Below, one piece after another: positions 6,089 through 24,900 of a stretch of 55,005 nucleotides of DNA; the stretch's first letter is position 1; each line of letters opens with the position of its first letter. The stretch is from a virus (taxonomy: Duplodnaviria > Caudoviricetes), in IMG/VR virus record IMGVR_UViG_3300048113_000456, positions 1 through 55,005 of that record. One strand, 5' to 3'. The notes below the pieces were generated by a model that was not told where the DNA came from, searched no databases, and saw nothing but the letters and a program-made list of their open reading frames with translations. Position numbers and translations under genes: made by a program.

Positions 6089-6917
6089 TTTTAGTGACAT
6101 TTTAGATGCAGAAACAACAAACACTACATTAGTAGTAGATGCTCTAAACCTAGCGTTTAGATACAAGCATCAGGGTCGCAACGACTTTCGTTACGATTAC
6201 CAAAAAACCGTACAATCTTTAGCAAAATCTTACAACTGTAGTAAGGTAATTATTACAGCTGATTGGGGATCTTCTAGCTACAGAAAAGAAATTAACTCTG
6301 AATACAAACAAAATCGTAAGGACAAGTTTGCAGAGCAGACAGAAGAAGAACGTATAGCTTTTGAAGAGTTCTTTGAAGAGTTTGAAGAAACACTAGAAGT
6401 ACTCGCAGAAGATTATGTAGTGCTAAGGTACAAGGGTGTAGAGGCTGATGATATTGCAGCTCACATTGTAAAAGAAAAAGAACAGTACGGATTAGAAAAT
6501 ATCTGGATGATATCAAGTGACCGAGATTGGGACTTAATGATTCAGGAAGGCGTTGGTAGATTCTCTTATGTGACGAGGAAGGAAGTCACGCTAGAGAACT
6601 GGAGTGAACACTATGATGTATCTCCAGAAGATTATATATCTTTGAAGTGCCTAACTGGAGATAAAGGTGATAACGTTCCGGGTATCCCAGGTATTGGACC
6701 AAAGAGAGCGCAGACTCTCATAGAAGAATATGGTACAGCATTAGATTTATATGATGCAATACCAATAAGTGGTAAGTATAAATATATTGAGTCTCTAAAT
6801 GAAAATGCAGAGCAACTCTTACAAAACTACGAACTAATGGATTTAATTACTTTTTGCGACGACGCAATAGGGTCTGACAATATAACAGACATAAAGGAAA
6901 AGTTAAGTGAAATATAA
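6078..6917 (+). CDS. D15: flap endonuclease / 5'-3' exonuclease (T5 D15-like)
   Basis: VDALNLAFR, YKQNR, GVEADD, SSDRD, GDKGDNVPGIPGIGPK motifs; GTG start. Confidence 0.92.
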   Translation: MAFDFSDILDAETTNTTLVVDALNLAFRYKHQGRNDFRYDYQKTVQSLAKSYNCSKVIITADWGSSSYRKEINSEYKQNRKDKFAEQTEEERIAFEEFFEEFEETLEVLAEDYVVLRYKGVEADDIAAHIVKEKEQYGLENIWMISSDRDWDLMIQEGVGRFSYVTRKEVTLENWSEHYDVSPEDYISLKCLTGDKGDNVPGIPGIGPKRAQTLIEEYGTALDLYDAIPISGKYKYIESLNENAEQLLQNYELMDLITFCDDAIGSDNITDIKEKLSEI

Positions 6918-8688
6918 TATTAACATTGATTACAATAGAGACAAGTATCTATCAGAGTTCGGGATTATCACTTTAAAAGATAGATATTTAGTGGCAGGTG
7001 AAACCTCGCCACAAGACGGCTTCGCAAGAGCAGCATGTGCTTTTGCAGATGATGAAGCACACGCACAGAGGTTATATGATTACGCTAGTAAATTGTGGTT
7101 TATGTTCAGTACTCCTATTCTTAGCAATGGCGGTACTGATCGTGGTTTGCCTATCAGTTGTTTTCTTAATCATGTTGAGGATTCTAGGGAAGGTATTACC
7201 GGACATTACACCGAGAATGCGTTTCTTTCTAGTGTTGGTGGCGGTATTGGTGGCCACTGGGGAGCCGTTCGTTCAGTAGGTAGCAAGACTTCAAAAGGTA
7301 GTGAATCTACTGGTGTTATTCCTTTTATTAAAGTAGTAGACGCTGAAATGTTAGCGTTCTCTCAAGGTGTAACACGCCGAGGTAGTTATGCTGCGTATCT
7401 TGATATATCGCATCCGGAAATTGAAGAGTTTTTGGACATTCGTAAACCTACTGGTGGTGATGTTAACCGTCGCAGCACTAATCTTCATCATGGCGTTGTT
7501 TTATCAGATGCTTTTATGGAGCTTATCGAAAAATGTACTATTGACAAGTCTTTGGATGATAGCTGGCCTTTGGTCGATCCGCACTCTGGGGAAGTAAAGA
7601 AAGTAGTATCAGCTAAGGCATTATGGGTTAAGATTATTCAGAATCGTGTAGAAACTGGCGAACCATATGTAATGTTTGGTGATACAGTCCAAGCGGGGCT
7701 GCCACAGACTCAACAAGATATGGGACTAAAAGTACATCACTCAAATTTATGTAGTGAGATTACTTTACCAACTGATGCAGAACGTACAGCAGTTTGTTGC
7801 TTATCTAGCGTAAACTTAGAAGAGTATGACGAATGGTGTGACAATGAGCAGTTTATTCCTGACTTAGTACGTATGTTAGACAATGTATTGACTCATTTTA
7901 TTGAGTGTGCGCCGAATGAGCTTGAAAAAGCCAAGTTTAGTGCTTTCCGTGAGCGGTCGATCGGACTTGGAGCGATGGGTTTCCATGCCTATTTACAACG
8001 TCATTCGATTCCATTTGAAAGCGTAATTGCAAAAACTAGAAACGAACAAATGTTTAAGTCTATAAAGGAGCAAGCACTTGAAGAATCAAAACGACTCGCA
8101 GAAAAATTTGGAGAAGCCCCAGATGCAATGGGTACTGGCGTTCGTAATATGCACCTTATGGCTATTGCCCCTAATGCTAGTAGCTCTATTATATGTGGTA
8201 ATACAAGTCCTTCTATTGAGCCTTTCCGCGCTAACGCTTATGTGCAGAAAACTAAATCCGGTACTTCTTTGGTTAAAAACGAATACCTCCAAGACTTACT
8301 ACAAGATATTGGCATGGATACGGATGAAGTATGGCGTTCAATTGCGAACAATAGAGGCTCGGTTCAGCATCTTGATTTCCTCGATGATTTTACTAAAGAC
8401 ATCTTTAAAACGTCGGTGGAAATAGACCAAAGTTGGGTTATAGATTTTGCAGCAGATAGACAGAAATACGTATGTCAATCTCAGTCTTTAAATCTGTTCT
8501 ACCCATCTAACGTAAGTAAGCTAGAGCTTCACTTACATCACATGAAAGCGTGGAAACGTGGTGTGAAAACTTTATATTATGCTCGATCAGAAGCATTTAA
8601 ACGAGCAGAGTCTGTATCAGACCAAGCATTACGTCAGCAAATAATCGACGTAGCAGACGGCAACGATTGCGTCATGTGTGAAGGATAA
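6907..8688 (+). CDS. nrdA: ribonucleoside-diphosphate reductase alpha subunit (class I, no N-terminal ATP cone)
   Basis: STPILSN, ISCF, SNLCSEI, CCLSS, APNASSS, KTLYY and C-terminal CVMC. Confidence 0.95.
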   Translation: MKYNINIDYNRDKYLSEFGIITLKDRYLVAGETSPQDGFARAACAFADDEAHAQRLYDYASKLWFMFSTPILSNGGTDRGLPISCFLNHVEDSREGITGHYTENAFLSSVGGGIGGHWGAVRSVGSKTSKGSESTGVIPFIKVVDAEMLAFSQGVTRRGSYAAYLDISHPEIEEFLDIRKPTGGDVNRRSTNLHHGVVLSDAFMELIEKCTIDKSLDDSWPLVDPHSGEVKKVVSAKALWVKIIQNRVETGEPYVMFGDTVQAGLPQTQQDMGLKVHHSNLCSEITLPTDAERTAVCCLSSVNLEEYDEWCDNEQFIPDLVRMLDNVLTHFIECAPNELEKAKFSAFRERSIGLGAMGFHAYLQRHSIPFESVIAKTRNEQMFKSIKEQALEESKRLAEKFGEAPDAMGTGVRNMHLMAIAPNASSSIICGNTSPSIEPFRANAYVQKTKSGTSLVKNEYLQDLLQDIGMDTDEVWRSIANNRGSVQHLDFLDDFTKDIFKTSVEIDQSWVIDFAADRQKYVCQSQSLNLFYPSNVSKLELHLHHMKAWKRGVKTLYYARSEAFKRAESVSDQALRQQIIDVADGNDCVMCEG

Positions 8689-8694
8689 GAGAAA

Positions 8695-9654
8695 ATGAGT
8701 AATTTATTAGAAGAAAGAAGTTATTTTAAACCGTTCAATTACCCTTGGGCATTTGAACACTATAAAACCCAGCAGCATATGCATTGGCTACCAGATGAAG
8801 TGCCTATGGCTGACGACATTAAAGATTACAACGAGAATCTCCCTGAGTCAAGCAAATCTCTACTGAATAACTTGTTTACGTTTTTTACTCAAGCTGATGT
8901 AGATGTTTGCTGTGGGTATGCAAAACATTATTTACCAACATTCAAGCAACCAGAAGTACGCATGATGTTAGCGGCCTTCGCCGCAATGGAAGCAGTACAC
9001 CAAGAGGCTTACTCTTTATTGTTAGAAACGCTAGGATTTGGCGATGATGTTTACAAAGAGTTCATGAATCACAAAGAGATGATGGACAAACATGAGTATC
9101 TAAACGATTTCGGTATGGATACTAAAATGGATATTGCAAAGACTATGGCTATATACTCAGGTTTTACCGAAGGTGTTCAGTTATTTAGTTCTTTCGCAAT
9201 TTTGTTGAACTTCCCACGACATGGTTTAATGAAGGGCATGGGACAGATTGTCTCCTGGTCAGTTCGGGATGAGTCATTACATGTCGAGGGAATGTCTCAA
9301 CTTTTCCGTACTTTTATTCAAGAAAATCCAGAGTTATGGACAGACGAGTTAAAGTACGAAATTTACTGTGCAGCAGAACGTACAGTGGAGTTGGAAGATG
9401 CGTTTATTGATCTTTGCTTTAAGGATGCTGAAATTAAAGGCCTTACAGCATTGGAAGTAAAAGAATATATTCGCTATATAGCAGATAGACGACTACTGGG
9501 TCTAGGATGTAAGAAGATTTTTGGAAGTGAAGAAAACCCTCTTCCTTGGATTGATTATATGACAAATGCAGTAGAACACACAAACTTTTTCGAAAACAGA
9601 CCTACCGAGTACTCAAAAGCGAGTACAACCGGTAATTGGCAAGACATTTTTTAA
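8695..9654 (+). CDS. nrdB: ribonucleoside-diphosphate reductase beta subunit (class Ia)
   Basis: FFTQAD, EAVHQEAY (radical Tyr), EGVQLFSSF, RDESLH, NFFENRPTEY. Confidence 0.95.
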   Translation: MSNLLEERSYFKPFNYPWAFEHYKTQQHMHWLPDEVPMADDIKDYNENLPESSKSLLNNLFTFFTQADVDVCCGYAKHYLPTFKQPEVRMMLAAFAAMEAVHQEAYSLLLETLGFGDDVYKEFMNHKEMMDKHEYLNDFGMDTKMDIAKTMAIYSGFTEGVQLFSSFAILLNFPRHGLMKGMGQIVSWSVRDESLHVEGMSQLFRTFIQENPELWTDELKYEIYCAAERTVELEDAFIDLCFKDAEIKGLTALEVKEYIRYIADRRLLGLGCKKIFGSEENPLPWIDYMTNAVEHTNFFENRPTEYSKASTTGNWQDIF

Positions 9655-9895: not shown

Positions 9896-9928
9896 AAAAA
9901 AGAAACCCAGCACTACGCTGGGTTTTTT
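9896..9928. terminator. bidirectional rho-independent terminator between convergent early and late blocks
   Basis: AAACCCAGC-ACTAC-GCTGGGTTT stem flanked by an A-tract and a T-tract. Confidence 0.8.
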
Positions 9929-10644
9929 AATGACAGTTCTAAATCATGGAATCCCTTCCGCAATTTCGAAATTCTATGTTTAGACTTGTCTGCTAGGCGG
10001 AGAATATTATCACGTATACTGGGATCAATACCATCACAATATTCTTCTAACCTATCAAAGGCATAAGCATACGTCTCCCGAACAGTAGCTTTTCCTGAGA
10101 TAATATGAGGTACGTAGTTCAGCACTGCGGCATGCTCTGACCCCATTCCATATTTTACCGCTTCCATACAGTTTATGCAACTTGATATTAACGGATCTGT
10201 TCTATGATTCATATATCTTGGCATATATAAAACTTTCTTTTCATTTAATATTCTTGTATCACTAGCAGGAACTTCATACCATTTCTCTGGATTTATAATA
10301 AATACCGACAAGTCTATATGGCCTGGAGTCATATTTACTCCAATCATTTCATAGTTCTTTGCCTGTCTTTTATGATCAGAGTACACCCCGCTACGACTAG
10401 CGCAGATATGGTACTTTCGTATAGTTTCTATAGGCGGTAAGTCATCGTGTCTAATGTTGAGTACAAGTCCCGAAACTACCACTAGGGTAGGCTCAGTAAC
10501 ATTTGCTAGTGCAGTACCTATCTTACTTTTTCCACACTTTACAACACTCCACTTTGCTCGTGGCGTGTTTTTCTGTATAGAATTTATTGTAAGTTGTGTA
10601 AGCTTTGGATTAGTTTCAAGAATTAGAATTTTTAGGCTTGACAT
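9913..10644 (-). CDS. putative degenerate GT-A (GT8-like) glycosyltransferase
   Basis: IDLSVFIINPEKW and LYMPRYMN resemble the GT8 'NsGV.linl..w' and 'lp..yN' segments; no clear DxD; start assumed at MSSLK (ORF track 10668). Confidence 0.4.
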   Translation of the reverse strand: MSSLKILILETNPKLTQLTINSIQKNTPRAKWSVVKCGKSKIGTALANVTEPTLVVVSGLVLNIRHDDLPPIETIRKYHICASRSGVYSDHKRQAKNYEMIGVNMTPGHIDLSVFIINPEKWYEVPASDTRILNEKKVLYMPRYMNHRTDPLISSCINCMEAVKYGMGSEHAAVLNYVPHIISGKATVRETYAYAFDRLEEYCDGIDPSIRDNILRLADKSKHRISKLRKGFHDLELSLKNPA

Positions 10645-11494
10645 GTTCAAACTCCTTAAACTTTTCAAAAAACAAATCTACATACTCTTGAGGATTTTCT
10701 GCGTTAACAGGTATAATGCCAGATGTTTTGCTAGAAAATAATCTTTTTAAGTTGTCTTCTCTATCTTCTCCATCTTTAAAAACTGCTTTATACAAAGAAC
10801 TATAGGTATAGTTGTTGTTTGCATTTCCAAATAAGTATACTTTCTTACCTTTAGCTACAGCAATTAGACCCATTTCTGAATTATCGCAAGCACCTACAAT
10901 TGAAGCATCTTCTAAAAGTTGGTGGCCCGATAGTTTTTTATCTAGTATATTATCTGCCCCAAACTCTTGTTTAAGTTTAGTTACAGCCCAGTTTGCAGTA
11001 ATTGGATGACACTTAAGTTTTGCTCCCTGCTTTACAGCTCGGTGAAGTTTACCGAAGTCACAAGCATCATATAATATATTAGTACCTGGAAGAAAGATTA
11101 CAAAGTCATGTGTCTTTCTATTCTTTCTTAGTCTATACTTATCTACGCTATTATTTTTAATATCATTATAAATTTTTAAACCTTCTTCGGTAATTTCAGA
11201 CTGGCAGGCATCTGCCATTTGTTTGTCGGACCAATACTTACCTGCAATACGTATAAGTATAAACTTACTCATCATATCTGTGTAAGTATATCCATGTATT
11301 CTTTTGTTGTCACCCATGTCATACCATATATCGTATTCGACATTTGTACTATTTGGACCATTTTTTGGTAATAAGTCTTTTAATGCTGCAACATTATCAT
11401 TAAGTTTATTTCTAACGATATTTCCAGATTTAAAGAAATGTGTGGCTGTATCTCCCAGCTCGTCTACATTACTCAGTCTTTCCAAGGCCATCAC
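10616..11494 (-). CDS. KpsS/KpsC (capsule polysaccharide synthesis)-like glycosyltransferase
   Basis: KCHP ... LLEDASIVGACDNSEMGLIAVAKGKKVYLFG matches the 'K.HP...ll..a..V...NS..G.eA...GK.V..fG' pattern. Confidence 0.55.
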   Translation of the reverse strand: MMALERLSNVDELGDTATHFFKSGNIVRNKLNDNVAALKDLLPKNGPNSTNVEYDIWYDMGDNKRIHGYTYTDMMSKFILIRIAGKYWSDKQMADACQSEITEEGLKIYNDIKNNSVDKYRLRKNRKTHDFVIFLPGTNILYDACDFGKLHRAVKQGAKLKCHPITANWAVTKLKQEFGADNILDKKLSGHQLLEDASIVGACDNSEMGLIAVAKGKKVYLFGNANNNYTYSSLYKAVFKDGEDREDNLKRLFSSKTSGIIPVNAENPQEYVDLFFEKFKEFEHVKPKNSNS

Positions 11495-11648
11495 GTAGCT
11501 CCTCTATGTCGTCCCCAAAGCCTTCCAAGCGATCTTCGGTATCTTCGAAGTGCTCCATGATAATGTCTAAAGTAGTCTCTAGACGACGACGCATATTTTT
11601 TACGTCGTCTTGTAGTTGTTTAAATTCTTTTTGTGTTACTCTGTCCAT
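11469..11648 (-). CDS. 59-aa acidic coiled-coil protein (absent from ORF track)
   Basis: MDRVTQKEFKQLQDDVKNMRRRLETTLDIIMEHFEDTEDRLEGFGDDIEELRDGLGKTE; overlaps both neighbours and fills the operon gap. Confidence 0.75.
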   Translation of the reverse strand: MDRVTQKEFKQLQDDVKNMRRRLETTLDIIMEHFEDTEDRLEGFGDDIEELRDGLGKTE

Positions 11649-14600
11649 TCTGAACCATCCCAGTAAATTGTATTATAATCAGATGCCGAAGATACTTCTG
11701 TAAATACGTTGCCTGATCCTGTATATCTCCCATACACAGTGGTGTCTGTATCTCTAGAAGTGCCTGTAGCACGGTTTGTAGATACAACAGTGTCAAATAA
11801 TGTGACAAATGCGGTTGTTGTATCAAATGTTGTCGATGCCGAAGTATCGAAAGTAGTTACATATACACTGCCTGTAGATCTTGAAGTAGCTCGGCTAGTA
11901 CTTCTGCTAGTGTTTCTAGAAGTTTGTGTAGCTAGGGTAGTACCTCTACTAGTATTAAACGTAGTGTTAAATGCAGTCGTTGTGTTAAACGCAGTACTTC
12001 TATTTGTGTTAAACGTAGTAGTTGTATTTCTGCTTGTATTAAAAGCAGTTACATTAGACGTTTCAGTAGCTAAAGAAGTTTCTGATGTTGTTTCAAATGT
12101 TGTGTTAAATGCCGTAGTAGTAGCAAGGGTTGTATTAAACGTAGTAGTTGTATTAAACGCTGTAGTACTACTTCTAGTTGTATTAAACGTAGTAGTTGTG
12201 TTAAATGCTGTTGTACGAGAAGTTTCATTTGTCGTATCAAAAGCTGTTACAAACGTAGTAGTTGTGTTAAACGCAGTAGTTGTGTTAAATGCTGTAGTAG
12301 TTCCACGGTCTGTACCGGTAGTTCTAGTAGTAGCAAAAATACTATAAGTAGCTCTACTTGTGTTAAACGTAGTTACTGTACCAAATGCAGTATAAGTACT
12401 ACGGCTTGTGCCTGTTGCTCTTGAAGTATCAAAGTAGCTAGTGTACGATGTTACTGTAGCAAATGCAGTAGTTGTGTTAAATGCAGTTGTTGTACTACGA
12501 CTTGTACCAGTAGTTTTACTTGTGTTAAACGCAGTAGTTGTGTTAAATGCAGTTGTTGTATTAAACGTGGTAGTTGTGTTATTACCAGTACCCGTTGTAC
12601 GTGTGGTATTGTACGTAGTAGTAAATGCTGTATACGTGCTGAACGCTGTTACAGTATTAAACGCAGTTGAAGTACCACGACTTGTACCAGTACCTTTGCT
12701 AGTATTAAATACCGTGCTTGTATTATACGTAGTGGTTGTATTAAACGCAGTAGTTGTATTATTACCTGTGCCAGTATTTCTATTCGTGTTAAAGTTTGAT
12801 ACATACGCAGTGTACGTAGCAAAAACAGTAGTTGTGCTAAACGCTGTATTAGTGTTACGACTTGTACCCGTACCTCTACTGGTGTTAAATGCAGTAGTTG
12901 TATTATACGCAGTAGTAGTTGTAAAGGTAGTAGTAGTGTTTAGACCCGTACCCGTTGTACGACTAGTATTAAAGTACGAAGTGTATGCAGTATACGTAGC
13001 AAATGCAGTTGTAGTAGCAAACGAAGTTGTAGTGCCACGACTTGTGCCGGTATTTCTATTTGTATTAAATACAGTACTTGTAGCATACGCAGTAGTTGTA
13101 GTAAATGCTGTAGAAGTTGTTATACCTGTTCCAGTAGTTCTACTTGTATTAAAGTTTGATACATAAGCAGTATAAGTACCAAAAGTAGTTACAGTAGAAA
13201 ATGCTGTGGTAGTACCACGATCAGTGCTAGTAGCTTTACTAGTATTAAACGCAGTAGTTGTATTATACGCAGTAGTTGTCGTAAAGGTAGTAGAGGTGTT
13301 TAAACCAGTACCCGTTGTACGAGTTGTATTAAAGTAGCTAGTATATGCAGTATACGTCGCAAATGCAGTTGTAGTAGCAAAGGAAGTTGTAGTACCGCGA
13401 CTTGTACCCGTACCTCTGCTAGTATTATAAGTTGTGCTTGTATTATACGTAGTGATTGTATTAAACGCAGTAGTTGTATTATTACCTGTACCAGTATTTC
13501 TATTCGTGTTAAAGTACGAAGTATACGCAGTATAAGTACCAAAAGTTGTTACTGTAGAGAATGCAGTATTAGTAGCTCTGTTAGTAGCTGTAGTTTTGCT
13601 AGTGTTAAATACTGTAGTTGTATTATACGCAGTAGTTGTCGTAAAGGTAGTAGTAGTATTCTTACCAGTACCTGTTGTACGCGTAGTATTGAAGTAAGAT
13701 GTATACGCAGTATAGGTAGCAAATGCTGTAGTAGTAGCAAAAGATGTTGTAGTTCCACGACTTGTACTTGTGCCTCTGCTAGTATTGAACGAGGTCGTTG
13801 TATTATACGCAGTAGTAGTTCCAAATACCGTAGAAGTATTTCTACTTTCAGCAGTATTTCTGCTAGTATTTGTAGCATATACAGTAGTGAAGGTAGTTGT
13901 AAACGCAGTACTAGTATTAAAAGAAGTAGTTGTGTTACGACCTTCAGCAGTATTTCTAGACGTAGCAGTACCGTATACAGTTACAAACGTAGTATTGAAG
14001 CTAGTAGTTGTTCCGAAGGATGTAGTTGTGTTACGACCTTCAGCAGTGTTTCTAGAGGTAGATGTAACTCTAGAAGTACCTCTAGACGTAGCAGTGGCTT
14101 TACTAGTGTTAAACGTAGTTGCTGTAGTATATGCAGTAGTTGTATTATATACAGTAGTAGTATTTCTGCTTTCCCCTGTAGTTCTGCTCGTGGCAGTAAC
14201 AAATACCGTAGTAAATGCCGTAGTAGTATTACGACTTGTAGAAGTTGCTCTACTTTCACCTGTATTTCTTGAAGTATTACGAGAAGTGTTACGATATTCG
14301 GCAGTGGCTCTACTTGTTGCAAATGTAGTAACAAATGTAGTAGTACGATACTCAGCCGTAGCTCTGCTTGTATTGAATGTAGTTACAAACGTAGTAGTTC
14401 GTGATGTATTGTAATACGTTAAGAATGTAGTAGTACGGTACTCAGCAGTAGCTCTTGAAGTGCCTGTAGCTCTGCTAGTATTTCTAGACGTGTCAAATAC
14501 GGTAGTAGTATTAAAACTAGTAGTTGTATTATGGTCAACAGTACTACGAGAAGTATTACGATACTCAGCAGTGGCTCTAGAAGTACCCGTAAGTCTAGAA

Positions 14601-17600
14601 GTATTAAAACTTACATTCTGTCTACGTCTAATTGTAAAAATATAAGTTTGGCTAGAACTATTATATACATAGCTAGTACCTTTTTGATACTCGTAACCAT
14701 TAGTGATTCGTGTAGTTGAGCCAAATAATGTACCTATGCCTGCTTGGTTCCATATACCTCCACCACCTTGGCTATATACAGAACTAATCTGCTCAACACC
14801 ATAGTAAACATAGTAACTATAATAACTTCTTTGGTAAGCAGTGTATGTTCCAATTACAGAAGTTACGAATGTAGTAGTAGTATTAAAGCTGGTAGTAGTA
14901 TTATGGTCTACAGTAAGGAAAGTAGTAGTACGATACTCAGCAGTAGCTCTCGAAGTTCCTGTAGCTTTAGAAGTTGCGTATACAGTACCAAATGTAGTAG
15001 TCGTGTTAAAACTTGTAGTAGTATTATGATCAACAGTACTACGAGACGTATTTCTTGAAGTATCAAATACTGTGGTACGAGATGTGTTTCTCGATGTATT
15101 AAAAGTTGTTGTAGTATTATGATCTACAGTACTACGAGACGTATTTCTTGACGTATCAAATGTAGTTGTAGTATTATGGTCTACAGTTAAGAATGTAGTC
15201 CCAAAAACAGTAGACGTAGTATAGGACGTAGTAGTATTAAAAGCAGTAGACGTACCTCTGCTAGTTCCTCTACTTGTGTTCGTTCCAAATACTGTGCTTG
15301 TATTATAAGCAGTAATGGTAGTACGACTTGTAGAAGTTGCTCGACTTTCTCCTGTATTACGTGCAGTATTAAAGACTGTAGTAGTATTAAATACAGTAGT
15401 AAAGGATGTAGTAGTTCCAAAAGTAGTAGATGTTGTATACGCTGTATAAGTCGCACGACTTGTACCAGTAGTACGTGACGTTCCGCGAGTAGTGTTTCTG
15501 CTAGTATTTGTTGAGAACGTTGTACTTGTAGTATAAGCAGTGTAAGTAGCTCTGCTTGTTACCGTTGATCTAGACGTTCCGCGAGAAGTGCTTCTGCTAG
15601 TATTAGTTGCGAATACTGTATTTGTTGTATAAGCGGTTAGGGTAGCTCTACTTGTAGCAGTAGTACGACTTTCCGCAGTTGTACGAGTAGTGATAAATGT
15701 AGTAGTTGTATTAAATACTGTAGTAGTTCCACGACTTGTACCAGTTGATCTTGTAGTTGTAGTATTTTTACCTGTAGCAATAGAAGTAGTAAATGTAGTT
15801 ACAGTATTGAATGCTGTGTATGTTCCACGACTTGTAGCAGTACCACGAGACTCTCCAGTTGTACGAGAGGTGTTAAATACTGTAGTAGTACCAAATACTG
15901 TGGTTGTGTTACGGTTAGTACCAGTATTTCTACTTGTAGCCGTGTTTCTACCTGTAGCTATACCTGTAATAAATACAGTATTTGTAATAAATGCAGTGTA
16001 TGTGTTACGGCTTGTACCTGTAGCTCTACTTTCTGAAGTTGTACGAGATGTGTTAAATACTGTAGTAGTATTAAACGCAGTAGTAGTACCGCGACTAGTA
16101 CCCGTTGCTCTTGTAGTTGTGGTATTTTTACCTGTAGCAATAGAAGTTACAAACGTAGTTGTAGTGTTGAAAGCAGTATAAGTATTGCGACTTGTAGCAG
16201 TACCACGAGACTCACCCGTTGTGCGAGTAGTAATAAATGTAGTTGTGGTGTTAAATACTGTTGTAGTTCCACGACTTGTACCAGTATTTCTGCTTGTAGC
16301 AGTATTAAGACCTGTAGCTATACCTGTAATAAATACGGTGCTAGTGTTAAAAGCAGTATAGGTATTTCTGCTGGTACCAGTTGATCTGCTTTCTATGGTA
16401 GTACGTGAAGTATTGAATACTGTGTTTGTGTTAAATGCTGTAGTAGTACCACGGCTTGTACCGGTAGATCTAGTTGTAGTTGTATTTACACCAGTAGCGA
16501 TAGAAGTTACAAACGTAGTTGTAGTATTAAATGCTGTGTATGTGTTACGACTTGTAGCAGTGCCGCGAGACTCGCCCGTTGTACGAGTAGTAATAAATGT
16601 AGTTGTCGTGTTAAATGCAGTAGTTGTGTTTCTGTTTGTACCAGTTGTACGACTGGTTGCAGTGTTTAAGCCTGTAGCTATGCCTGTGATAAATACAGTA
16701 TTTGTGATAAATGCAGTGTATGTGCTACGACTTGTGCCAGTAGATCTACTTTCTGAAGTTGTGCGAGAAGTATTAAATACTGTAGTAGTGTTAAACGCAG
16801 TAGTAGTTCCACGACTTGTACCAGTTGCTCTAGTAGTTGTAGTATTTCTACCAGTACCTAAACTTGTATTAAATGTAGTAACAGTGTTGAAAGCAGTATA
16901 AGTGCTACGAGAAGTAGCTGTGCTCTTAGACGTACCAGTTGTACGAGTAGTGATAAACGTAGTTGTAGTATTAAACGCAGTGGTTGTACCACGGCTTGTA
17001 CCAGTAGTTCTTACCGTAGTAGTGTTTCTGTCTGTACCAATACTTGTTTGGAATGTAGTGCTGGTGTTGAATGCAGTAGTAGTATTTAGACCAGTTCCGG
17101 TAACGTTATTTGTGTTAAATACAGTAGACGTGGTTGTACCAGTATTAAACGTAGTTGTAGTATTAAACGCTGTAGTAGTATTACGACTAGTTCCAGTTAC
17201 TTTAGATGTAGCTGTGGTTCTAGTCGTGTTTCTAGAAGTAATAAATGTGGTGTTGAACGCAGTTGTACGACTAGTCTCTGTAGACTTTGAAGTGTTAAAC
17301 GTTGTCGTTGTGCTACGGCTAGTACCAGTTGCTTTTGAAGTTTCAAATACAGTATTTGTACTACGAGAAGTTCCACGAGACGTATTAAACGTGGTGTTGA
17401 ATGCTGTGATTGTGTTAAACGCAGTTGTACGAGTTGTTTCAAATACTGTACCGCTTTCACGAGTAGTTTCAAAAGTAGTAGTACGAGAAGTTTCTGTAGC
17501 TAAAGTAGTTCCGCGAGAGGTATTAAACGTAGTGTTAAACGCAGTAGTTGTATTAAATGCTGTAACAAATGTAGTAGTAAAAGTTGTAGTAAATGCTGTA

Positions 17601-17890
17601 GTTGTGCTTACAGTAGTATCTACACTTGTTGCAAACGTAGTAGTACGACTAGTAGCAGTACTAGCAGAAGTTCCTAAAGAAGTTTCAAATGTTGTGTTAA
17701 ACGCAGTAGTAGTATTAAAAGCTGTAGATGTTGCTGTAGAAGTAGCTGTTATAGCCTGCCACGCAGTAGAAAAAGTTACGTCACCTTTTGCTAGTACGTA
17801 TCCAACAGAACGTAAAGTGCCTGCGGTGGCCTTTACTATTATTTGCTTTGGCTCTACTAGGGCGGAGCCATTCCACACCTTGATAGTCAT
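11636..17890 (-). CDS. giant Thr-rich repeat protein with mirror-complementary halves; putative beta-hairpin fibre
   Basis: 2084 aa; Thr at alternating positions; NTTTAF/GTSR units; unique central domain of ~80 aa; KVWNGS and YWDGSEW ends; located in the fibre gene cluster. Confidence 0.8.
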   Translation of the reverse strand: MTIKVWNGSALVEPKQIIVKATAGTLRSVGYVLAKGDVTFSTAWQAITATSTATSTAFNTTTAFNTTFETSLGTSASTATSRTTTFATSVDTTVSTTTAFTTTFTTTFVTAFNTTTAFNTTFNTSRGTTLATETSRTTTFETTRESGTVFETTRTTAFNTITAFNTTFNTSRGTSRSTNTVFETSKATGTSRSTTTTFNTSKSTETSRTTAFNTTFITSRNTTRTTATSKVTGTSRNTTTAFNTTTTFNTGTTTSTVFNTNNVTGTGLNTTTAFNTSTTFQTSIGTDRNTTTVRTTGTSRGTTTAFNTTTTFITTRTTGTSKSTATSRSTYTAFNTVTTFNTSLGTGRNTTTTRATGTSRGTTTAFNTTTVFNTSRTTSESRSTGTSRSTYTAFITNTVFITGIATGLNTATSRTTGTNRNTTTAFNTTTTFITTRTTGESRGTATSRNTYTAFNTTTTFVTSIATGVNTTTTRSTGTSRGTTTAFNTNTVFNTSRTTIESRSTGTSRNTYTAFNTSTVFITGIATGLNTATSRNTGTSRGTTTVFNTTTTFITTRTTGESRGTATSRNTYTAFNTTTTFVTSIATGKNTTTTRATGTSRGTTTAFNTTTVFNTSRTTSESRATGTSRNTYTAFITNTVFITGIATGRNTATSRNTGTNRNTTTVFGTTTVFNTSRTTGESRGTATSRGTYTAFNTVTTFTTSIATGKNTTTTRSTGTSRGTTTVFNTTTTFITTRTTAESRTTATSRATLTAYTTNTVFATNTSRSTSRGTSRSTVTSRATYTAYTTSTTFSTNTSRNTTRGTSRTTGTSRATYTAYTTSTTFGTTTSFTTVFNTTTVFNTARNTGESRATSTSRTTITAYNTSTVFGTNTSRGTSRGTSTAFNTTTSYTTSTVFGTTFLTVDHNTTTTFDTSRNTSRSTVDHNTTTTFNTSRNTSRTTVFDTSRNTSRSTVDHNTTTSFNTTTTFGTVYATSKATGTSRATAEYRTTTFLTVDHNTTTSFNTTTTFVTSVIGTYTAYQRSYYSYYVYYGVEQISSVYSQGGGGIWNQAGIGTLFGSTTRITNGYEYQKGTSYVYNSSSQTYIFTIRRRQNVSFNTSRLTGTSRATAEYRNTSRSTVDHNTTTSFNTTTVFDTSRNTSRATGTSRATAEYRTTTFLTYYNTSRTTTFVTTFNTSRATAEYRTTTFVTTFATSRATAEYRNTSRNTSRNTGESRATSTSRNTTTAFTTVFVTATSRTTGESRNTTTVYNTTTAYTTATTFNTSKATATSRGTSRVTSTSRNTAEGRNTTTSFGTTTSFNTTFVTVYGTATSRNTAEGRNTTTSFNTSTAFTTTFTTVYATNTSRNTAESRNTSTVFGTTTAYNTTTSFNTSRGTSTSRGTTTSFATTTAFATYTAYTSYFNTTRTTGTGKNTTTTFTTTTAYNTTTVFNTSKTTATNRATNTAFSTVTTFGTYTAYTSYFNTNRNTGTGNNTTTAFNTITTYNTSTTYNTSRGTGTSRGTTTSFATTTAFATYTAYTSYFNTTRTTGTGLNTSTTFTTTTAYNTTTAFNTSKATSTDRGTTTAFSTVTTFGTYTAYVSNFNTSRTTGTGITTSTAFTTTTAYATSTVFNTNRNTGTSRGTTTSFATTTAFATYTAYTSYFNTSRTTGTGLNTTTTFTTTTAYNTTTAFNTSRGTGTSRNTNTAFSTTTVFATYTAYVSNFNTNRNTGTGNNTTTAFNTTTTYNTSTVFNTSKGTGTSRGTSTAFNTVTAFSTYTAFTTTYNTTRTTGTGNNTTTTFNTTTAFNTTTAFNTSKTTGTSRSTTTAFNTTTAFATVTSYTSYFDTSRATGTSRSTYTAFGTVTTFNTSRATYSIFATTRTTGTDRGTTTAFNTTTAFNTTTTFVTAFDTTNETSRTTAFNTTTTFNTTRSSTTAFNTTTTFNTTLATTTAFNTTFETTSETSLATETSNVTAFNTSRNTTTTFNTNRSTAFNTTTAFNTTFNTSRGTTLATQTSRNTSRSTSRATSRSTGSVYVTTFDTSASTTFDTTTAFVTLFDTVVSTNRATGTSRDTDTTVYGRYTGSGNVFTEVSSASDYNTIYWDGSEWTE
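12430..13870 (-). repeat. eight 180-bp (60-aa) coding repeats, C-terminal arm
   Basis: The recurring xTYTAYTSYF landmark occurs 8 times at 60-aa spacing; boundaries approximate. Confidence 0.8.
15600..17041 (-). repeat. eight 180-bp (60-aa) coding repeats, N-terminal arm
   Basis: The recurring (S/G)IATG(L/K/V/R)N landmark occurs 8 times, alternating A/B variants; boundaries approximate. Confidence 0.8.
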
Positions 17891-17891
17891 G

Positions 17892-18275
17892 TTATACTAT
17901 ATACCAGACATAGCCAGTTGGCTTCCCAGACCCATCAGTAGGTACAGTGCTTGTAACTTCAGAAATATCATTATTAAAGTCTGATAAATTATCTGGCGTA
18001 CTATAACTGAACACACCCGTAGCGGCATTGTAAGCAAGATCCCCAGTAGCAGAAACTGCATTTCTAGCTCGGGTTGTTGAAAAGTAAGGTTTGCTAGGAT
18101 CTTCGGCGAGATCGGCAGTAGTTCTGTCGTTTATACGTATAACAGTGCCGTCGCTTTTTTTAATATACATAAGACCGTCATATGTATTTATAGCAACTTC
18201 ACCTAAGGCTAGTTGTGATGCATTTGGTGCGGTATCTGGCGAAGCCGAACGCTTTAATTTAATAGTTTGTGCCAT
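17892..18275 (-). CDS. small tail-fibre adaptor-like virion protein
   Basis: N-terminal IKLKRS...GEVAINTYDG fibre motif; RBS AGGAG. Confidence 0.65.
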   Translation of the reverse strand: MAQTIKLKRSASPDTAPNASQLALGEVAINTYDGLMYIKKSDGTVIRINDRTTADLAEDPSKPYFSTTRARNAVSATGDLAYNAATGVFSYSTPDNLSDFNNDISEVTSTVPTDGSGKPTGYVWYIV

Positions 18276-18334
18276 GTGGCTCTCCTAGAGACTTGCGTAT
18301 ATACGCAGGAGTGGATATCGAGGTTTATAGGAGA

Positions 18335-18363
18335 ATTATAGCGTAAGAGGATTAGAAAGTCAA
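18335..18363 (-). promoter_or_regulatory. sigma70-type late promoter
   Basis: TTGACT-17-TATAAT with an upstream A-tract. Confidence 0.8.
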
Positions 18364-18422
18364 GGAGTTTTTTTGGGAAGGTAGCTGAGCAACGAGTTGT
18401 TGCCCAGCATTTTTAGAGCTTT

Positions 18423-19673
18423 TTAGAAAGTACCGCCGTCTAGTTCGGTAATTTGTGCTTCGAAGTTAGCAACTGTAAGTAGGTTAGAATAGTTAGTTCC
18501 ATCTACGGTAGTTTGCCAAATGTCTGTAGTTTCGTTCCAACGTAAAGAAACGTTTGCAGAAGTTCCACGTTCTACTTCAATACCTGCGTGAGCGCTTGGA
18601 GTACCAGCTTCATCTTTGTTTAAAACAATGATGTTATCGCCAATCTCTACAGTAGTAGAGTTAACAGAAGTTGTAGTACCTTGTACAGTTAAGTCGCCTG
18701 CAATAATTACATCAACACCTGATCCATCACCTAATGTAAGGTCAGCACCATTATCTGTAGTAATTGTGGTACCATCTAAGCTAAGGTTATCTACGCCTAA
18801 TGAGGTTAGTCCAGTTAAGTCAGACTCACTTGATCCTAAAGTTAAAGTAGTTGAACCTAAAGTTGTACTAGAGTTTGCTAGATTGGCGTTAGGTAACGCA
18901 CCAGAAACATCTGCTGCTAAGTCAATAGCACCCAAAGTGATTTCTTGACCACTTAAAGATAAATAGTCATGAGAAGTAGTATTAAGAGTTACATTAGTAG
19001 AGTTATCAGTACCTGCTACATCTACATTTATTAGAGTACGTACTTCACCAGCTGTAATACCTGTTTCTAAAGCAGGTGTTCCTGCATTATCATAAATAGC
19101 AGGAGTTTCGCCAGAGTAGGCAAATGTTATTGTATTATCTGTAACAGTAGTAGTAATGTCTGTACTACCAGTAAATGTTAGTGTTTCGCCCGTATTATAA
19201 GTATCGGTATTGGTACCATCACTAAGTGTAATGCTACTAGATGATGGAGCTTGCCATGCAGTTTGTCCAGAACCATTGGTAACAAGAACATTTCCTGCAT
19301 TACCGTCTGCTTGTGGCCAATTTACACCATCTAATACTAAGTCACCAGTACCATGTGGAGTTAATGTTAAAGCACCATTTGTGTCGGTACTTGTAATAGC
19401 ATTACCATCAATAGTAATATTATCAACGTTTAACTGATCAATTTTCTTGCTAGAATCTACAATAATAGCACTTGAAGCTGTTAAAGTACCTGCTGTGTGA
19501 TCAAGCATATCGGTAAAGTATTTACCACCGATTACTGTAACATCGCCTGTACCAGGATTACCAATAAATAGTTTATTACTGGTACCTTCTGATGAATAAG
19601 CTAATTCACCTTGGTTTAGTGTTGCGGGAGTAGCCGTAGTGCTACTGCGTTTTATCTTAATTACTTGAGCCAT
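18423..19673 (-). CDS. tail fibre / virion structural protein
   Basis: IKIKRS...GELAY N-terminus; G/T/S-rich beta repeats; GIEVERG...WNE motif; ends in LDGGTF. Confidence 0.7.
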   Translation of the reverse strand: MAQVIKIKRSSTTATPATLNQGELAYSSEGTSNKLFIGNPGTGDVTVIGGKYFTDMLDHTAGTLTASSAIIVDSSKKIDQLNVDNITIDGNAITSTDTNGALTLTPHGTGDLVLDGVNWPQADGNAGNVLVTNGSGQTAWQAPSSSSITLSDGTNTDTYNTGETLTFTGSTDITTTVTDNTITFAYSGETPAIYDNAGTPALETGITAGEVRTLINVDVAGTDNSTNVTLNTTSHDYLSLSGQEITLGAIDLAADVSGALPNANLANSSTTLGSTTLTLGSSESDLTGLTSLGVDNLSLDGTTITTDNGADLTLGDGSGVDVIIAGDLTVQGTTTSVNSTTVEIGDNIIVLNKDEAGTPSAHAGIEVERGTSANVSLRWNETTDIWQTTVDGTNYSNLLTVANFEAQITELDGGTF

Positions 19674-20466: not shown

Positions 20467-21345
20467 TTAGTTATTTAAAAATTTTCTTAGCCAATTCTCT
20501 TTATCTAAATGGGTCATAAATAGAGGTCTGTATATAATGGGCAATTCCCAAATACTACTACGCCATTTAGGTACAGTGTTAGAAACCTTTTCTTTAAATA
20601 AAGCTACAGAATCTTTTTGGGCAAACTTTTTTTGTATAGAGCCCTCTGTGGTTCTATCTACTATGTACATGTCACTTGACATAGTTAAACAGTAGCATAA
20701 ATTACCTTTTTGATGCTCTGCTAGCAGTTGATAAGAATACAAATGATCTTCTGCTACAGGCAAGTCTTCGCTCATCTTTATTTTAGCTGATTTTTTACTC
20801 TGAAGTATAATAAAATCCGTAGATTTTGGTAAATCTTCTGACCATATATGAGACTCTCCTATGCCTAATTTTTTACTCGGAGTAACTAAACTAATACCCC
20901 ATACTCCGGCTTGTAAATCTTCCGAAACTTGAGCTACGTGTCCTGCATTTACTTTAGTATTTAAAATATCTGTAGGTATAACCCCAAGTACATCAATACA
21001 AGGAAACTGTTTTATGTGGCTATATAAGGACTTTATATAGGAAGGATATAATAAGTCATCTCCATCTATTTGGCTAATAAAGTCACAGTTACTATTTAAA
21101 AATAAGTCTAAACAAGAGTTTTTACCTTTTCCAGGTAATCCATTACTTTCTGTTTGTATAACAGGATACGGCAGCTTTAACTTTAATACTTCTTGAAAAT
21201 AGTTAGAATTAGTAGAATTTACTACTATAATAGGAGTAAGTTCAACCTCGGGTATTTGTTTAATTTCTAATAAATTATTTACAATTCTTACTAACTTTTC
21301 TATACTATTTGTGGTTAGTATAGTAAGCATTATTTTTACCTTCAT
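20467..21345 (-). CDS. GT-A fold (GT2-like) glycosyltransferase
   Basis: ESNGLPGKGKNS...QIDGDDLL (DxDD) and AEDH motifs. Confidence 0.7.
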   Translation of the reverse strand: MKVKIMLTILTTNSIEKLVRIVNNLLEIKQIPEVELTPIIVVNSTNSNYFQEVLKLKLPYPVIQTESNGLPGKGKNSCLDLFLNSNCDFISQIDGDDLLYPSYIKSLYSHIKQFPCIDVLGVIPTDILNTKVNAGHVAQVSEDLQAGVWGISLVTPSKKLGIGESHIWSEDLPKSTDFIILQSKKSAKIKMSEDLPVAEDHLYSYQLLAEHQKGNLCYCLTMSSDMYIVDRTTEGSIQKKFAQKDSVALFKEKVSNTVPKWRSSIWELPIIYRPLFMTHLDKENWLRKFLNN

Positions 21346-21347
21346 AC

Positions 21348-21896
21348 TTAATCCTCTGTATTAAAGAAAAAAGTCTGAAAAAGTCTGGCATTAGTTTTAT
21401 CTGTACCAAAACCTGGAAGTACACTTCTATGGTAGTAATTAGCATCGTATATCACTGCTCTATTATATAAATTTTTAGCTTCTGCTATAATTTCCCAATC
21501 CGATTCTAAAGTTTTATGTTTGTTAAAGTCTACTAGGGCTTCTTTTGAGTGTTTATATATGCCCGTAGGTTTATGTCTGTAAATAGCAGTGCCAGAGTCC
21601 AGAGGAGCATCTGGTGTTAGGTAAACTACACATGCCCAGCTTGTCTGATCGTGATGTATCCAGGTAGTTGCATCTTGTGTAGTATATTGAAACGCAGTGT
21701 TGTACTCTGCAGGCCAATAAGTTATTTTTTTGTTAAGTATTTTTTCAAAAGTTTTTTGAATTTCGTAAAACCATGCACCTCCACAAGCTTTAGTGCGTTT
21801 TCCAGGGTAGTTCCCTGTTATATTAAACTCCCAGGATAGTGCTAGTTTTCTAACACTATCCGGATCTTGATAAAAATTATCTTGTATTATAAACAT
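21348..21896 (-). CDS. 2OG-Fe(II) oxygenase (DUF6445-like)
   Basis: DNFY, YPGKR, WIHHD (HxD), VVYLTP, GT, YNRAVIY...YHRS, RLFQTFF. Confidence 0.75.
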   Translation of the reverse strand: MFIIQDNFYQDPDSVRKLALSWEFNITGNYPGKRTKACGGAWFYEIQKTFEKILNKKITYWPAEYNTAFQYTTQDATTWIHHDQTSWACVVYLTPDAPLDSGTAIYRHKPTGIYKHSKEALVDFNKHKTLESDWEIIAEAKNLYNRAVIYDANYYHRSVLPGFGTDKTNARLFQTFFFNTED

Positions 21897-21901
21897 ATAT
21901 G

Positions 21902-24900
21902 TTATCCTAGGTTGCCGATTTTTACTCTGATATTACCAGATCCATCGTATATTAAAATTCTATTGTTAGTTCCGTCTATCCCTAGCACGTTTTCGTTCGT
22001 ACCTCCCGGCGTATAATTAGACGCTCTAGAATACTCTGTAAAAGTTGTGCCAGATCCAGAATATTCCCAAGCTCTATCTGAAGGTATATGCCAGTATACG
22101 TCTCCTGCTAAAGCAGGGCTTTTTACATTTTCTATTGCTACTTTTTTATTAGCGTCTGTAGCTATAGTAGAACCTGTATCAAATGCTATAGTGTTTCCTG
22201 CCGCGCCTTGTGCTCCAATCTCCCCTTGAGGACCTGTTTCACCTTGAGCACCTTGCTGTCCTTGAGGGCCTTGAGCACCTTGGGGCCCTGTTTGACCTTG
22301 GGCTCCTTGTTGTCCTTGTGGACCTTGATCACCTTCAGCACCTTGAGGCCCTGTTTCACCTTGTGGACCATCATCACCCTGAGCACCTTGGTCACCTTGA
22401 GCACCTTGAGGTCCTGTTTCACCTTGAGGACCATCATCCCCTTGAGGACCTTGATCACCTTCTGCACCTTGAGGTCCTGTTTCACCTTGAGGACCATCAT
22501 CCCCTTGAGGACCTTGATCACCTTCTGCACCTTGAGGACCAGTAATACCTTGAGCACCTTGTTCGCCTTGAGGACCTTGATCACCTTCTGCACCTTGAGG
22601 ACCAGTAATACCTTGAGCACCTTGTTCGCCTTGAGGACCTTGGTCACCTTCTGCACCTTGAGGACCAGTAATACCTTGAGCACCTTGTTCGCCTTGAGGA
22701 CCTTGGTCACCCTCAGCACCTTGAGGACCAGTAATACCTTGAGCACCTTGTTCGCCTTGAGGACCTTGGTCACCTTCAGCACCTTGAGGGCCAGTAATAC
22801 CTTGAGCACCTTGTTCGCCTTGAGGACCTTGGTCACCCTCAGCACCTTGAGGACCTGTTTCGCCTTGAGGACCATCATCACCTTGTGGACCTTGATCACC
22901 CTCAGCGCCTTGAGGTCCTGTAATACCCTGTGCACCTTGCTCACCTTGAGCACCTTGGTCACCTGTAGCACCTTGAGGGCCTGTAATACCTTGTGGACCT
23001 TGCTCACCTTGTGGTCCTTGCTCACCTTGGTTACCTTGCAAGCCTTGAGGACCTTGAGCTCCTTGCTCTCCTATAGGACCTTGAGCGCCTACTACTAGGA
23101 AAGCAGAATATGCATGAAAACTAGAAGCATCTATAGCAGAGGAGGAGGCTTCCTGAGCGTAAGTTTGGTAATTTATATTAGTAACACCTCCCGGCACTCC
23201 GGTAGCTATTCCGTATATAGAGTAAGTTCCACCTACAGTTGAAAAACTTGCATTTACTGTTTGTTTTCCTACGGGTGTTAGTTTATTATAGTTTATTATT
23301 TCATACCATAAAGTATCTACTAAGACATCTTCTACTAACTCTTGGGTCCCAGGCTCTTTATTAGATACGGAATCATCTCCTCCCCATACCCAGTGTTTCC
23401 CTGAGTGTAAAACAAGATCTCCATTATCATAGCTAGTAGAAGAAGACCAGGCACTTTGATTAGCAGGGGCACCTCCATAATCTTCATCAGAAGGATCTAA
23501 ATAACCTCTAGGAGCATTTGAGTAGTAAGGAAAGACTGTTTCTCCAGTATCTCCTACAGCTCCCTGCAGTCCTGCACCTCCTTGTGGGCCAGTAATACCT
23601 TGAGGACCTGTCTCACCTTGAGCACCTTGAGGGCCTTCACCACCTTGTGGACCAGTAATACCTTGAGGACCTTGGTCACCTGTAGCACCTTGAGGACCTG
23701 TCTCACCTTGAGCACCATCAGCACCTTGAGGACCTTGGTCACCTGTAGCACCTTGAGGACCTGTCTCACCTTGAGCACCATCAGCACCTTGTGGACCTTG
23801 ATCACCTGTTGCACCTTGAGGACCTGTCTCACCTTGAGGACCATCATCACCTTGAGGACCTTGATCACCTATATTACCTTGAGGACCTGTTTCACCTTGA
23901 GGGCCGTCTTCACCTTGAGGACCTTGATCACCCTCAGCACCTTGAGGACCTGTTTCACCTTGAGGACCGTCTTCACCTTGAGGACCTTGATCACCCTCAG
24001 CACCTTGAGGACCTGTCTCACCTTGAGGACCGTCTTCACCTTGAGGGCCTTGATCGCCGATGTTACCTTGAGGACCTGTCTCACCTTGAGGACCGTCTTC
24101 ACCTTGAGGGCCTTGATCACCGATGTTACCTTGAGGACCTGTTTCACCTTGAGGACCGTCTTCACCTTGTGGACCTTGATCGCCTATGTTACCCTGTGGA
24201 CCTTCTTCACCTTGAGGACCGTCTTCACCTTGAGGACCTTGGTCACCTATATTGCCTTGAGGGCCTTGTTCTCCTTGTGGACCTTCTTGACCTTGAGGCC
24301 CTTGATCACCTATATTACCTTGAGGACCTGTTTCACCTTGAGGACCCTCTTCACCTTGTGGACCTTGTTCACCTTGAGCACCTTCTTCACCTTGAGGACC
24401 TTGATCACCTTCAATGCCTTGAGGGCCTTGAGCACCACGAATAGACTTAGTAAAGGTTTGAACTCTAGTGTAGGTTGTTTCACCTCCTACGCCATCTACA
24501 ACAACTATCGTAAAGGTAATACTTCCGGTATTTGCACTAAGAGCTGTAATACTACCTAGTGTGTAAGAATTTGAGTCTGTAGTAGGAGTGCTATCTTCTG
24601 TAACATTAGTAGAAGATACATTAGTAACTCTAAACGACGGAGTTTGGTATTCTTCACTATCATCATAAGGTATATAAGTATTTCCTATAATTGCTTTGAT
24701 AGTAGTACTTGTATTGGTAAAATCTAATGTGTCGTTTTCAAGAACTGGTACACTACAGTTTTCATTACTAAGTACTATATTTACGCCGTCTACTACTCCG
24801 TCAGCTACGCCCTCTACGCCTGGGTATCCGCTTAAAGGATGATACGCAGAGTATAGTCTAGAAACTTTATTTCCGTTTTGAGTATCAATCTGCGTAACTA

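Follow-up and report, generated by a model that had tools for sequence, protein, structure and literature searches.

Mirror-complementary halves of a 2084-residue phage protein point to a probable fold-back antiparallel beta-ribbon fibre

The stretch of DNA analysed here (the window) is the 55,005-nucleotide (nt) IMG/VR metagenome record IMGVR_UViG_3300048113_000456 of an uncultured phage, with an estimated completeness of 71%. On its minus strand lies a single open reading frame (ORF; positions 11636-17890, ATG start, 2084 amino acids (aa) plus stop), hereafter the hairpin gene, whose product P0001 (residues numbered from 1) has two halves that are complementary to each other when one is read forwards and the other backwards. 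Sequences of relatives lend strong and independent support to the antiparallel pairing of these two arms. We consider it probable that the chain folds back into an antiparallel beta-ribbon and serves a siphovirus as a fibre, in all likelihood a side fibre, with a length of up to ~0.3 µm.

The protein is extreme in composition, with 799 Thr among its 2084 residues (38%), 236 aromatic residues, 162 Arg/Lys, 57 Asp/Glu, five His and one Pro, and with a computed mass of 223 kDa, net charge of +105 and isoelectric point of 11.1. The mirror relation was scored along each anti-diagonal i+j of the protein by counting aromatic residues (Phe, Tyr or Trp) opposite basic ones (Arg or Lys), with no hand-picked markers. 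A single sharp peak was obtained at i+j=2104, where 131 of the 162 Arg/Lys residues face an aromatic residue over the whole protein, together with four aromatic:aromatic and no basic:basic pairs; the runner-up registers, with scores of 88 and 85, are the shifts of this register by the 60-residue repeat in either direction. Taking the maximum over all registers, 300 shuffles of the residues gave a mean of 30.0 and a maximum of 37, whereas 300 parity-preserving shuffles reached 50 at most and block shuffles with blocks of 4-60 residues (300 each) gave maxima of 47-73. The strictest control, which left the grammar intact and permuted only the sequence in which the C arm's 161 marker units follow one another (500 times), yielded a mean of 36.6 with a standard deviation of 2.8 and a maximum of 47, against an observed value of 128. 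All stop-to-stop frames of the window of at least 150 aa were scored in the same manner; the hairpin ORF alone carries the signal (z ~70), and the next-best frame (z 7.7) is an antisense frame within a collagen-repeat gene. The complementarity of the markers had been claimed in an original prediction made from the DNA sequence, which compared parts of the N arm with the reversed C arm; its two strings of 30 markers were reproduced letter for letter by us, and the relation extends through the stretches that had been left unchecked there and far exceeds that of shuffled units.

Residues 55-905 pair with residues 2049-1199 without any indel throughout. Thr occupies alternate positions, and successive pairs fall on two faces in turn, of which face A comprises 425 cross pairs: 239 T:T, 128 aromatic:R/K, 32 aromatic:L/I/V/A/N/S, 13 E:T and 11 S:T, the remainder being one F:T and one D:R pair, and neither aromatic:aromatic nor R/K:R/K pairs are found. 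Its residues are mostly Thr (59%), Phe (16%) and Arg (14%). The 161 pairs that contain an aromatic residue are separated by 160 intervals, which are of 4 residues in 59 cases and of 6 residues in 101, with no other spacing. Face B is built to 92% from T/S/N/A/G/V and is nearly uncharged, with 22 Asp/Glu in 850 residues. Its pairs also show preferences, N:S (z=6.3) and G:T (z=4.1) being enriched and N:N, S:S and G:G depleted.

The simple register fails close to the middle of the chain, between residues ~903-1012 and ~1093-1200, where it moves by single-residue bulges, a feature absent from the original prediction. A gapped alignment of this region restores the complementarity right up to the tip. 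The bulges are the sites at which VDHN on one arm opposes AEYR on the other, and all five VDHN motifs lie opposite the five AEYR motifs; on the N arm VDHN occurs at residues 903, 922, 953 and 994, and AEYR at 984.

Each arm contains a tandem array, and that of the C arm mirrors that of the N arm in copy number and period (60-aa units, 120-aa super-period). Such 60-aa repeats, together with the Thr-x-Thr (TxT) ladders that the literature gives as typical of solenoids, could also be accommodated in a beta-solenoid or an amyloid-like stack of parallel coils, as in the Thr-ladder antifreeze and ice-nucleation proteins. We regard this as very improbable: the parallel-offset correlation reaches 80 at best (offset 12), which is weak against the mirror peak of 131, the mirror code is followed by the non-repetitive ends and by several repeat types alike, and no Pfam family is matched by the protein.

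The symmetry resides in the protein and not in the DNA, as originally stated. Watson-Crick pairs make up a fraction of 0.349 at the mirror register; the in-phase neighbours reach 0.333-0.335 and the best unrelated register 0.380. The longest inverted match in the DNA is of 40 nt at 73%. A palindrome at the DNA or RNA level was considered as the cause and rejected, no inverted repeat coinciding with the mirror register. The absence of the symmetry from the DNA implies selection at the level of the protein.

A scan of viral contigs yielded six related loci, of which three carry long homologs of 1472, 1408 and 1780 aa (L004, L006 and L007, respectively) and one a 311-aa form, all four with the same N- and C-terminal domains as the window protein. 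A profile of the N-terminal domain (alignment A1, in which 26 of 56 columns are invariant) retrieved 25 proteins, mostly fragments at contig ends, and a search with one complete short member retrieved 43, of which the 26 full-length ones (298-352 aa) were aligned (A2). No match was obtained when residues 1-60 were searched against proteins in the size range of 1146-3647 aa, nor with megablast of window positions 11000-19000 or tblastn of the short member P0025 against 50,697 phage records, and the 26 short members gave no match in PHROGs.

These relatives allow an independent test of the pairing. The best register minus the length of the protein lies between 17 and 23 in 31 of 31 complete members (298-2084 aa), the value of 17 being that of a subfamily with 5 additional residues in its C-terminal domain. 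The near constancy of this difference means that the arms are always equal, from ~70 to ~950 residues. Eight distinct lengths of the N arm, between 70 and 92 residues, occur in the 26 short members, and in 25 of these members the C arm exceeds it by 2 or 3 residues; in the lone outlier, P0061, an inserted stretch of the N arm was aligned into the tip columns and the register is normal. Two of the long homologs, L004 and L006, are 86% identical and differ by six indels in the N arm, +32 residues in total, and by six in the C arm, again +32 in total, which fall at mirrored places. In the 613 pairs comparable between them we found seven F:R to R:F double swaps, of the kind that the original prediction had proposed to look for, and three conversions of T:T to F:R, and not one change yields a forbidden pair. 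The three long homologs each show one or two clashes in 125-159 marker-containing pairs.

The equal arms, the compensated indels and swaps, and a strict alternation with mirror complementarity over ~950 pairs are left unexplained by a disordered, possibly O-glycosylated, mucin-like spacer whose symmetry would have no structural meaning, and a single Pro in 2084 residues does not speak for such a chain either. We find it highly implausible, even though structure predictors return the arms as low-confidence coil and the same module holds an ORF with a weak resemblance to GT2 glycosyltransferases (20.8 bits, below the cut-off of 23.3).

A mirror code by itself would fit a hairpin and a duplex of two antiparallel chains equally well, and the N arm of one subunit might pair with the C arm of another, be it as an antiparallel dimer, as a domain-swapped oligomer or in a network of chains joined head to tail. 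The centre of the proteins makes this unlikely. In L004 and L006 only a turn of ~4 residues, exactly at the centre, separates the paired arms; in the window protein a duplex would have to carry two copies of the central 80-aa domain as an internal bulge; and in either case N- and C-terminal domains would be found at both ends of the doubled rod, an awkward arrangement for an appendage of the virion. A tip domain, originally proposed to be displayed, is found in the window protein and in the short members, the two tips being related (hhalign probability 96%, E 3.6e-9, 76 columns). It is not a general feature, given that L004, L006 and L007 lack it and end in the short turn, and in these three homologs the shaft rather than the tip may be the functional part.

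Taken together, these data lead us to propose the following fold-back arrangement. The chain would run out along the N arm (residues ~55-1012), turn at the small tip domain (~1013-1092) and return along the C arm (~1093-2049), the two arms forming one antiparallel beta-ribbon of ~950 residue pairs and, at the usual beta-strand rise of 0.33 nm per residue, of roughly 0.3 µm. Face A of this ribbon would be a ladder of cross-strand Thr:Thr pairs, broken each 4 or 6 residues by a Phe or Tyr set against Arg or Lys, possibly in cation-pi contact, or less often against an aliphatic or small polar residue. Both the strand that bears the aromatic residue and the spacing of 4 or 6 vary aperiodically, so that only one register escapes aromatic:aromatic, Arg:Arg and marker:Thr clashes; since the other registers clash, the markers can be read as a register code, which would stop slippage in an otherwise low-complexity chain. 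Face B, with its small or polar residues, probably has a packing partner, which may be further copies of the ribbon. The conserved domains at the two termini would lie side by side and anchor the fibre at the baseplate region of the virion, and the strongly cationic fibre might serve for a first, reversible contact with the cell surface.

Several considerations support these steps. The compatibility of each position i with position S-i, S being the register sum, and the length changes in both halves are most simply caused by physical contact. The strict two-residue periodicity fits beta-strands, and the tight central turn of three homologs and the central domain of the others fit an intramolecular hairpin with its termini together. 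A face B of small, uncharged residues is suggestive of packing between ribbons.

Other observations weigh against the proposal. AlphaFold2 (AF2) run on residues 841-1263 without an alignment gave a mean predicted local distance difference test (pLDDT) score of 31.7 and no usable model of the arms; in P0025 the arms were modelled as coil (pLDDT ~30), and the ESM Atlas model of the same protein has a pLDDT of 0.34. The one-register antiparallel pairing of the original prediction came through every sequence-based refutation test, whereas AF2 provided no confident model of it. In the short family (n=26) both orientations of a pair occur in only 1 of 63 aromatic-containing column pairs, and as column covariation is so thin, the evidence for compensation is drawn from the indels and from the comparison of L004 with L006. 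We know of no precedent for an isolated two-stranded ribbon of such a length, and an object of more than one ribbon is suggested by the lack of charge and the small residues of face B. Finally, the presence of the protein in the virion is something that we infer.

The number of ribbons leads to a further possibility, a bundle of several hairpins, for example a trimer in which three hairpins would form a needle or prism of six strands, comparable to a T4 gp37 needle drawn out to great length, and face B would be buried between the ribbons. The nature of this face, 92% T/S/N/A/G/V with so few acidic residues, and its size-complementary N:S and G:T pairing fit a packed surface, and phage fibres are usually trimers. 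On the other hand, we found no second clean register, as a closed multi-strand sheet, or edge-to-edge pairing of neighbouring hairpins, might need; the HxH metal-binding motif is absent, all five His being in VDHN; and no chain of the PDB is matched in sequence. We put the bundle forward tentatively, as a refinement of the fold-back reading and not in opposition to it.

The confident part of the structural models is the tip. In the AF2 model of P0025 (340 aa, 26 sequences) the tip reaches a pLDDT of 73-92 and the N-terminal domain is modelled weakly (62-69). The search of the ESM Atlas gave a best feature score of 0.77 and no structural match above a template modelling (TM) score of 0.29. With the P0025 model, of which the tip alone is confident, VIA-align against 48,161 PDB representatives gave a best Z of 3.8, and Foldseek against the PDB no match at E<=0.001. 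No known fold can be clearly assigned to the tip, for which the sole lead is one match in BFVD; the matched protein, from Rhizobium phage RL2RES, has a domain of the receptor-recognising adhesin Gp38 (E 2.5e-5, 116 columns, TM score of 0.20 by query length, root-mean-square deviation of 6.5). The Pfam Gp38 family was not matched by any of the 26 short members at E<=1.

The same grammar was found in a second group of proteins. The sole matches of a homolog search with the whole protein were 11 T4-like proteins annotated as 'baseplate wedge subunit' (P0002-P0012), among them a protein of the cultured Stenotrophomonas phage DLP_6, with E values of 3.6e-10 to 9e-4 over 8-27% of the query. Their similarity to the window protein may be only compositional. 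All 11 carry the Thr ladder and the mirror code in their C-terminal ~600 aa (residues ~715-1235 of P0002), each with one mirror register of 26-41 aromatic:basic pairs, against shuffle maxima of 20-25, and with no basic:basic pair; the arms are ~260 pairs long. In contrast to the hairpin family, the grammar is joined here to a wedge domain (PF23786, weak match) and not to the MTIKVWNGS and YWDG domains. Other cultured T4-like phages have only the N-terminal wedge part in common with these proteins, and the excerpted text of the DLP6 paper (PMC5349666) makes no mention of the code-bearing region. Phage DLP_6 thus offers a cultured system in which the structure can be tested.

On this basis a wider proposal can be made, over which we are evenly divided: that a protein analogue of base pairing exists, in which an aromatic:Arg/Lys code set with 4/6 spacing into a Thr:Thr ladder would fix the register of hairpins of ~950 pairs (~0.3 µm) in one polypeptide, would evolve by mirrored indels and F:R swaps, would leave the length free to change (27 to 320 nm in one phage lineage) and would have been used in at least two unrelated families of virion proteins. 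If the fold-back reading is true, hairpins of ~950 pairs would be, to our knowledge, by far the longest beta-hairpins known.

The fibres known from phages and other viruses consist of triple beta-helices, beta-spirals, collagen or coiled coils. Full-text literature searches, with supplementary files outside their scope, returned no published description of a fibre such as that proposed here, and a phmmer search of P0001 against all PDB chain sequences gave no match at E<=1, in agreement with the original statement that no such phage fibre had been described. We judge the proposed architecture to be new among fibrous proteins. A fold-back at a central hinge, with the two halves paired in antiparallel fashion for tens of nm and one head formed by the termini, is familiar from SMC and Rad50 proteins; their arms are alpha-helical coiled coils without a binary aromatic/cation code, and they are ATPases acting on DNA.

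In T4 gp37 each chain extends to the tip and then returns, with the distal domain in mid-sequence, and the needle is a trimer held by metal-binding His motifs. This needle, the tip of the T4 long tail fibre and by inference of lambda Stf, is the closest structural relative in idea. It is described as a six-stranded antiparallel beta needle (PMC7291167) with a length of ~15 nm (150 by 25 Å; PMC3004832). The window protein differs in its arms of up to ~950 pairs, in the Thr ladder with its aromatic/Arg code and in the absence of HxH; this absence, together with that of any sequence match in the PDB, indicates that it is not a member of the gp37 family. [quoted passage not shown] In the same account their stalk is an alpha-helix wound with a polyproline-II helix, and not a beta-ribbon, and is about six times shorter; moreover, these are wall-anchored streptococcal adhesins, unrelated in sequence. 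The ice-binding and ice-nucleating beta-solenoids share with the window protein flat TxT arrays of Thr on the face of a beta-sheet; they consist of parallel coils with short repeats, whereas each position of the window protein pairs with its mirror position in the other half. The 'Tentaclins' (PMC10743442) were also considered and set aside, being lectin and immunoglobulin chains, unrelated to the protein studied here.

The segments of the hairpin gene and the positions of the long homologs are collected in Table 1. The C-terminal motif YWDGxxWTE resembles DUF2510 (PF10708), which is matched by all 26 short members just under the cut-off (best match 23.2 bits, E 5.5e-5; gathering cut-off 24 bits). 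P0001 itself gives no Pfam match at E<=0.01, DUF2510 included, and no family of Pfam, PHROGs or NCBIfam is matched by it. On the plus strand, antisense ORFs of up to 360 aa overlap the gene between positions 11709 and 17984 (for example 16902-17984); they translate to low-complexity strings rich in Ser, Cys and Val and are most likely by-products of the sense strand, rich in Thr codons.

Table 1. Location of the hairpin gene and its segments in the window, and of the long homologs in their own loci.
Feature	Position	Strand	Evidence or remark
Whole ORF	11636..17890	-	Stop codon 11636-11638; ATG 17890-17888; upstream gene ends 17892; synteny kept in related contigs
N-terminal domain, residues 1-47, begins MTIKVWNGSA, family-conserved, presumed anchor	17750..17890	-	Alignment A1, profile search
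N arm, residues ~55-1012, Thr at alternate positions, marker each 4 or 6 residues	14855..17728	-	
N-arm tandem array, 180-nt (60-aa) unit, ~7.5 copies, 360-nt super-period	15650..17005	-	
Tip-proximal N arm, residues 905-1012, register shifts by one-residue bulges	14855..15178	-	
Tip domain, residues ~1013-1092, Tyr/Gly-rich, motifs GYEYQKG and IRRR	14615..14854	-	hhalign to short-member tip
C arm, residues ~1093-2049, complement of the N arm when reversed	11744..14614	-	
C-arm tandem array, 180-nt unit, ~7.6 copies, 360-nt super-period	12456..13816	-	
C-terminal domain, residues ~2050-2084, ends YWDGSEWTE, family-conserved, DUF2510-like motif	11639..11743	-	Alignment A2
Long homolog, 1472 aa	L004:8001-12419		
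Long homolog, 1408 aa	L006:8001-12227		
Long homolog, 1780 aa	L007:3788-9130		

The minus strand of the window is a typical siphovirus late operon, and the hairpin gene lies within its tail morphogenesis module. It encodes the terminase and the portal protein, an apparent protease-capsid fusion, the adaptor and the terminator, and the major tail protein with chaperones. These are followed by a 1502-aa tape measure, Dit, a 2446-aa collagen-repeat hub/fibre protein, DUF6445, the weak GT2-like ORF, a homolog of the L-shaped-tail-fibre assembly protein, two unknown ORFs, a 127-aa ORF with the N-terminus of a tail fibre, the hairpin gene and two conserved unknown ORFs. This gene order is kept in the related loci L002-L007, and within it the hairpin gene varies from 311 to 2084 aa. 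The two ORFs directly downstream (positions 9913-11494, minus strand, 292 and 251 aa) are kept beside the hairpin gene in L004-L007 with 42-54% identity and have no match in Pfam, PHROGs or NCBIfam; their products are candidate assembly factors of the fibre.

Some other genes of the window deserve comment. The collagen-repeat protein (positions 20467-29242, minus strand) matches Pfam Collagen with an E value of 1.4e-89, and the products of the DUF6445 and GT2-like ORFs, which come next, may be enzymes that modify this collagen-like fibre. A 650-aa ORF (positions 39954-41906, minus strand) matches a head maturation protease over residues 7-303 and a major head protein over residues 10-612, and from these matches it looks like a protease-capsid fusion. 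The genes for the large and small subunits of ribonucleotide reductase (positions 6907-9654, plus strand) adjoin the structural module.

If our reading is true, a single chain folded back over hundreds of nm would embody a new building principle, its register being encoded by aromatic and cationic residues in binary fashion. As a protein counterpart to the covariation of RNA, long-range beta pairing would be specified by nothing but the sequence. The principle might also provide a design rule for programmable, register-controlled beta-ribbon nanofibres and materials. Structure predictors fail on the family here, and it offers an uncommon opportunity to test them. For the evolution of these phages it poses a puzzle, because the length of the protein must change at two distant sites of the gene together. 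The family extends from 298 to 2084 aa in one conserved gene neighbourhood, which would make the hairpin protein a host-recognition element of variable length.

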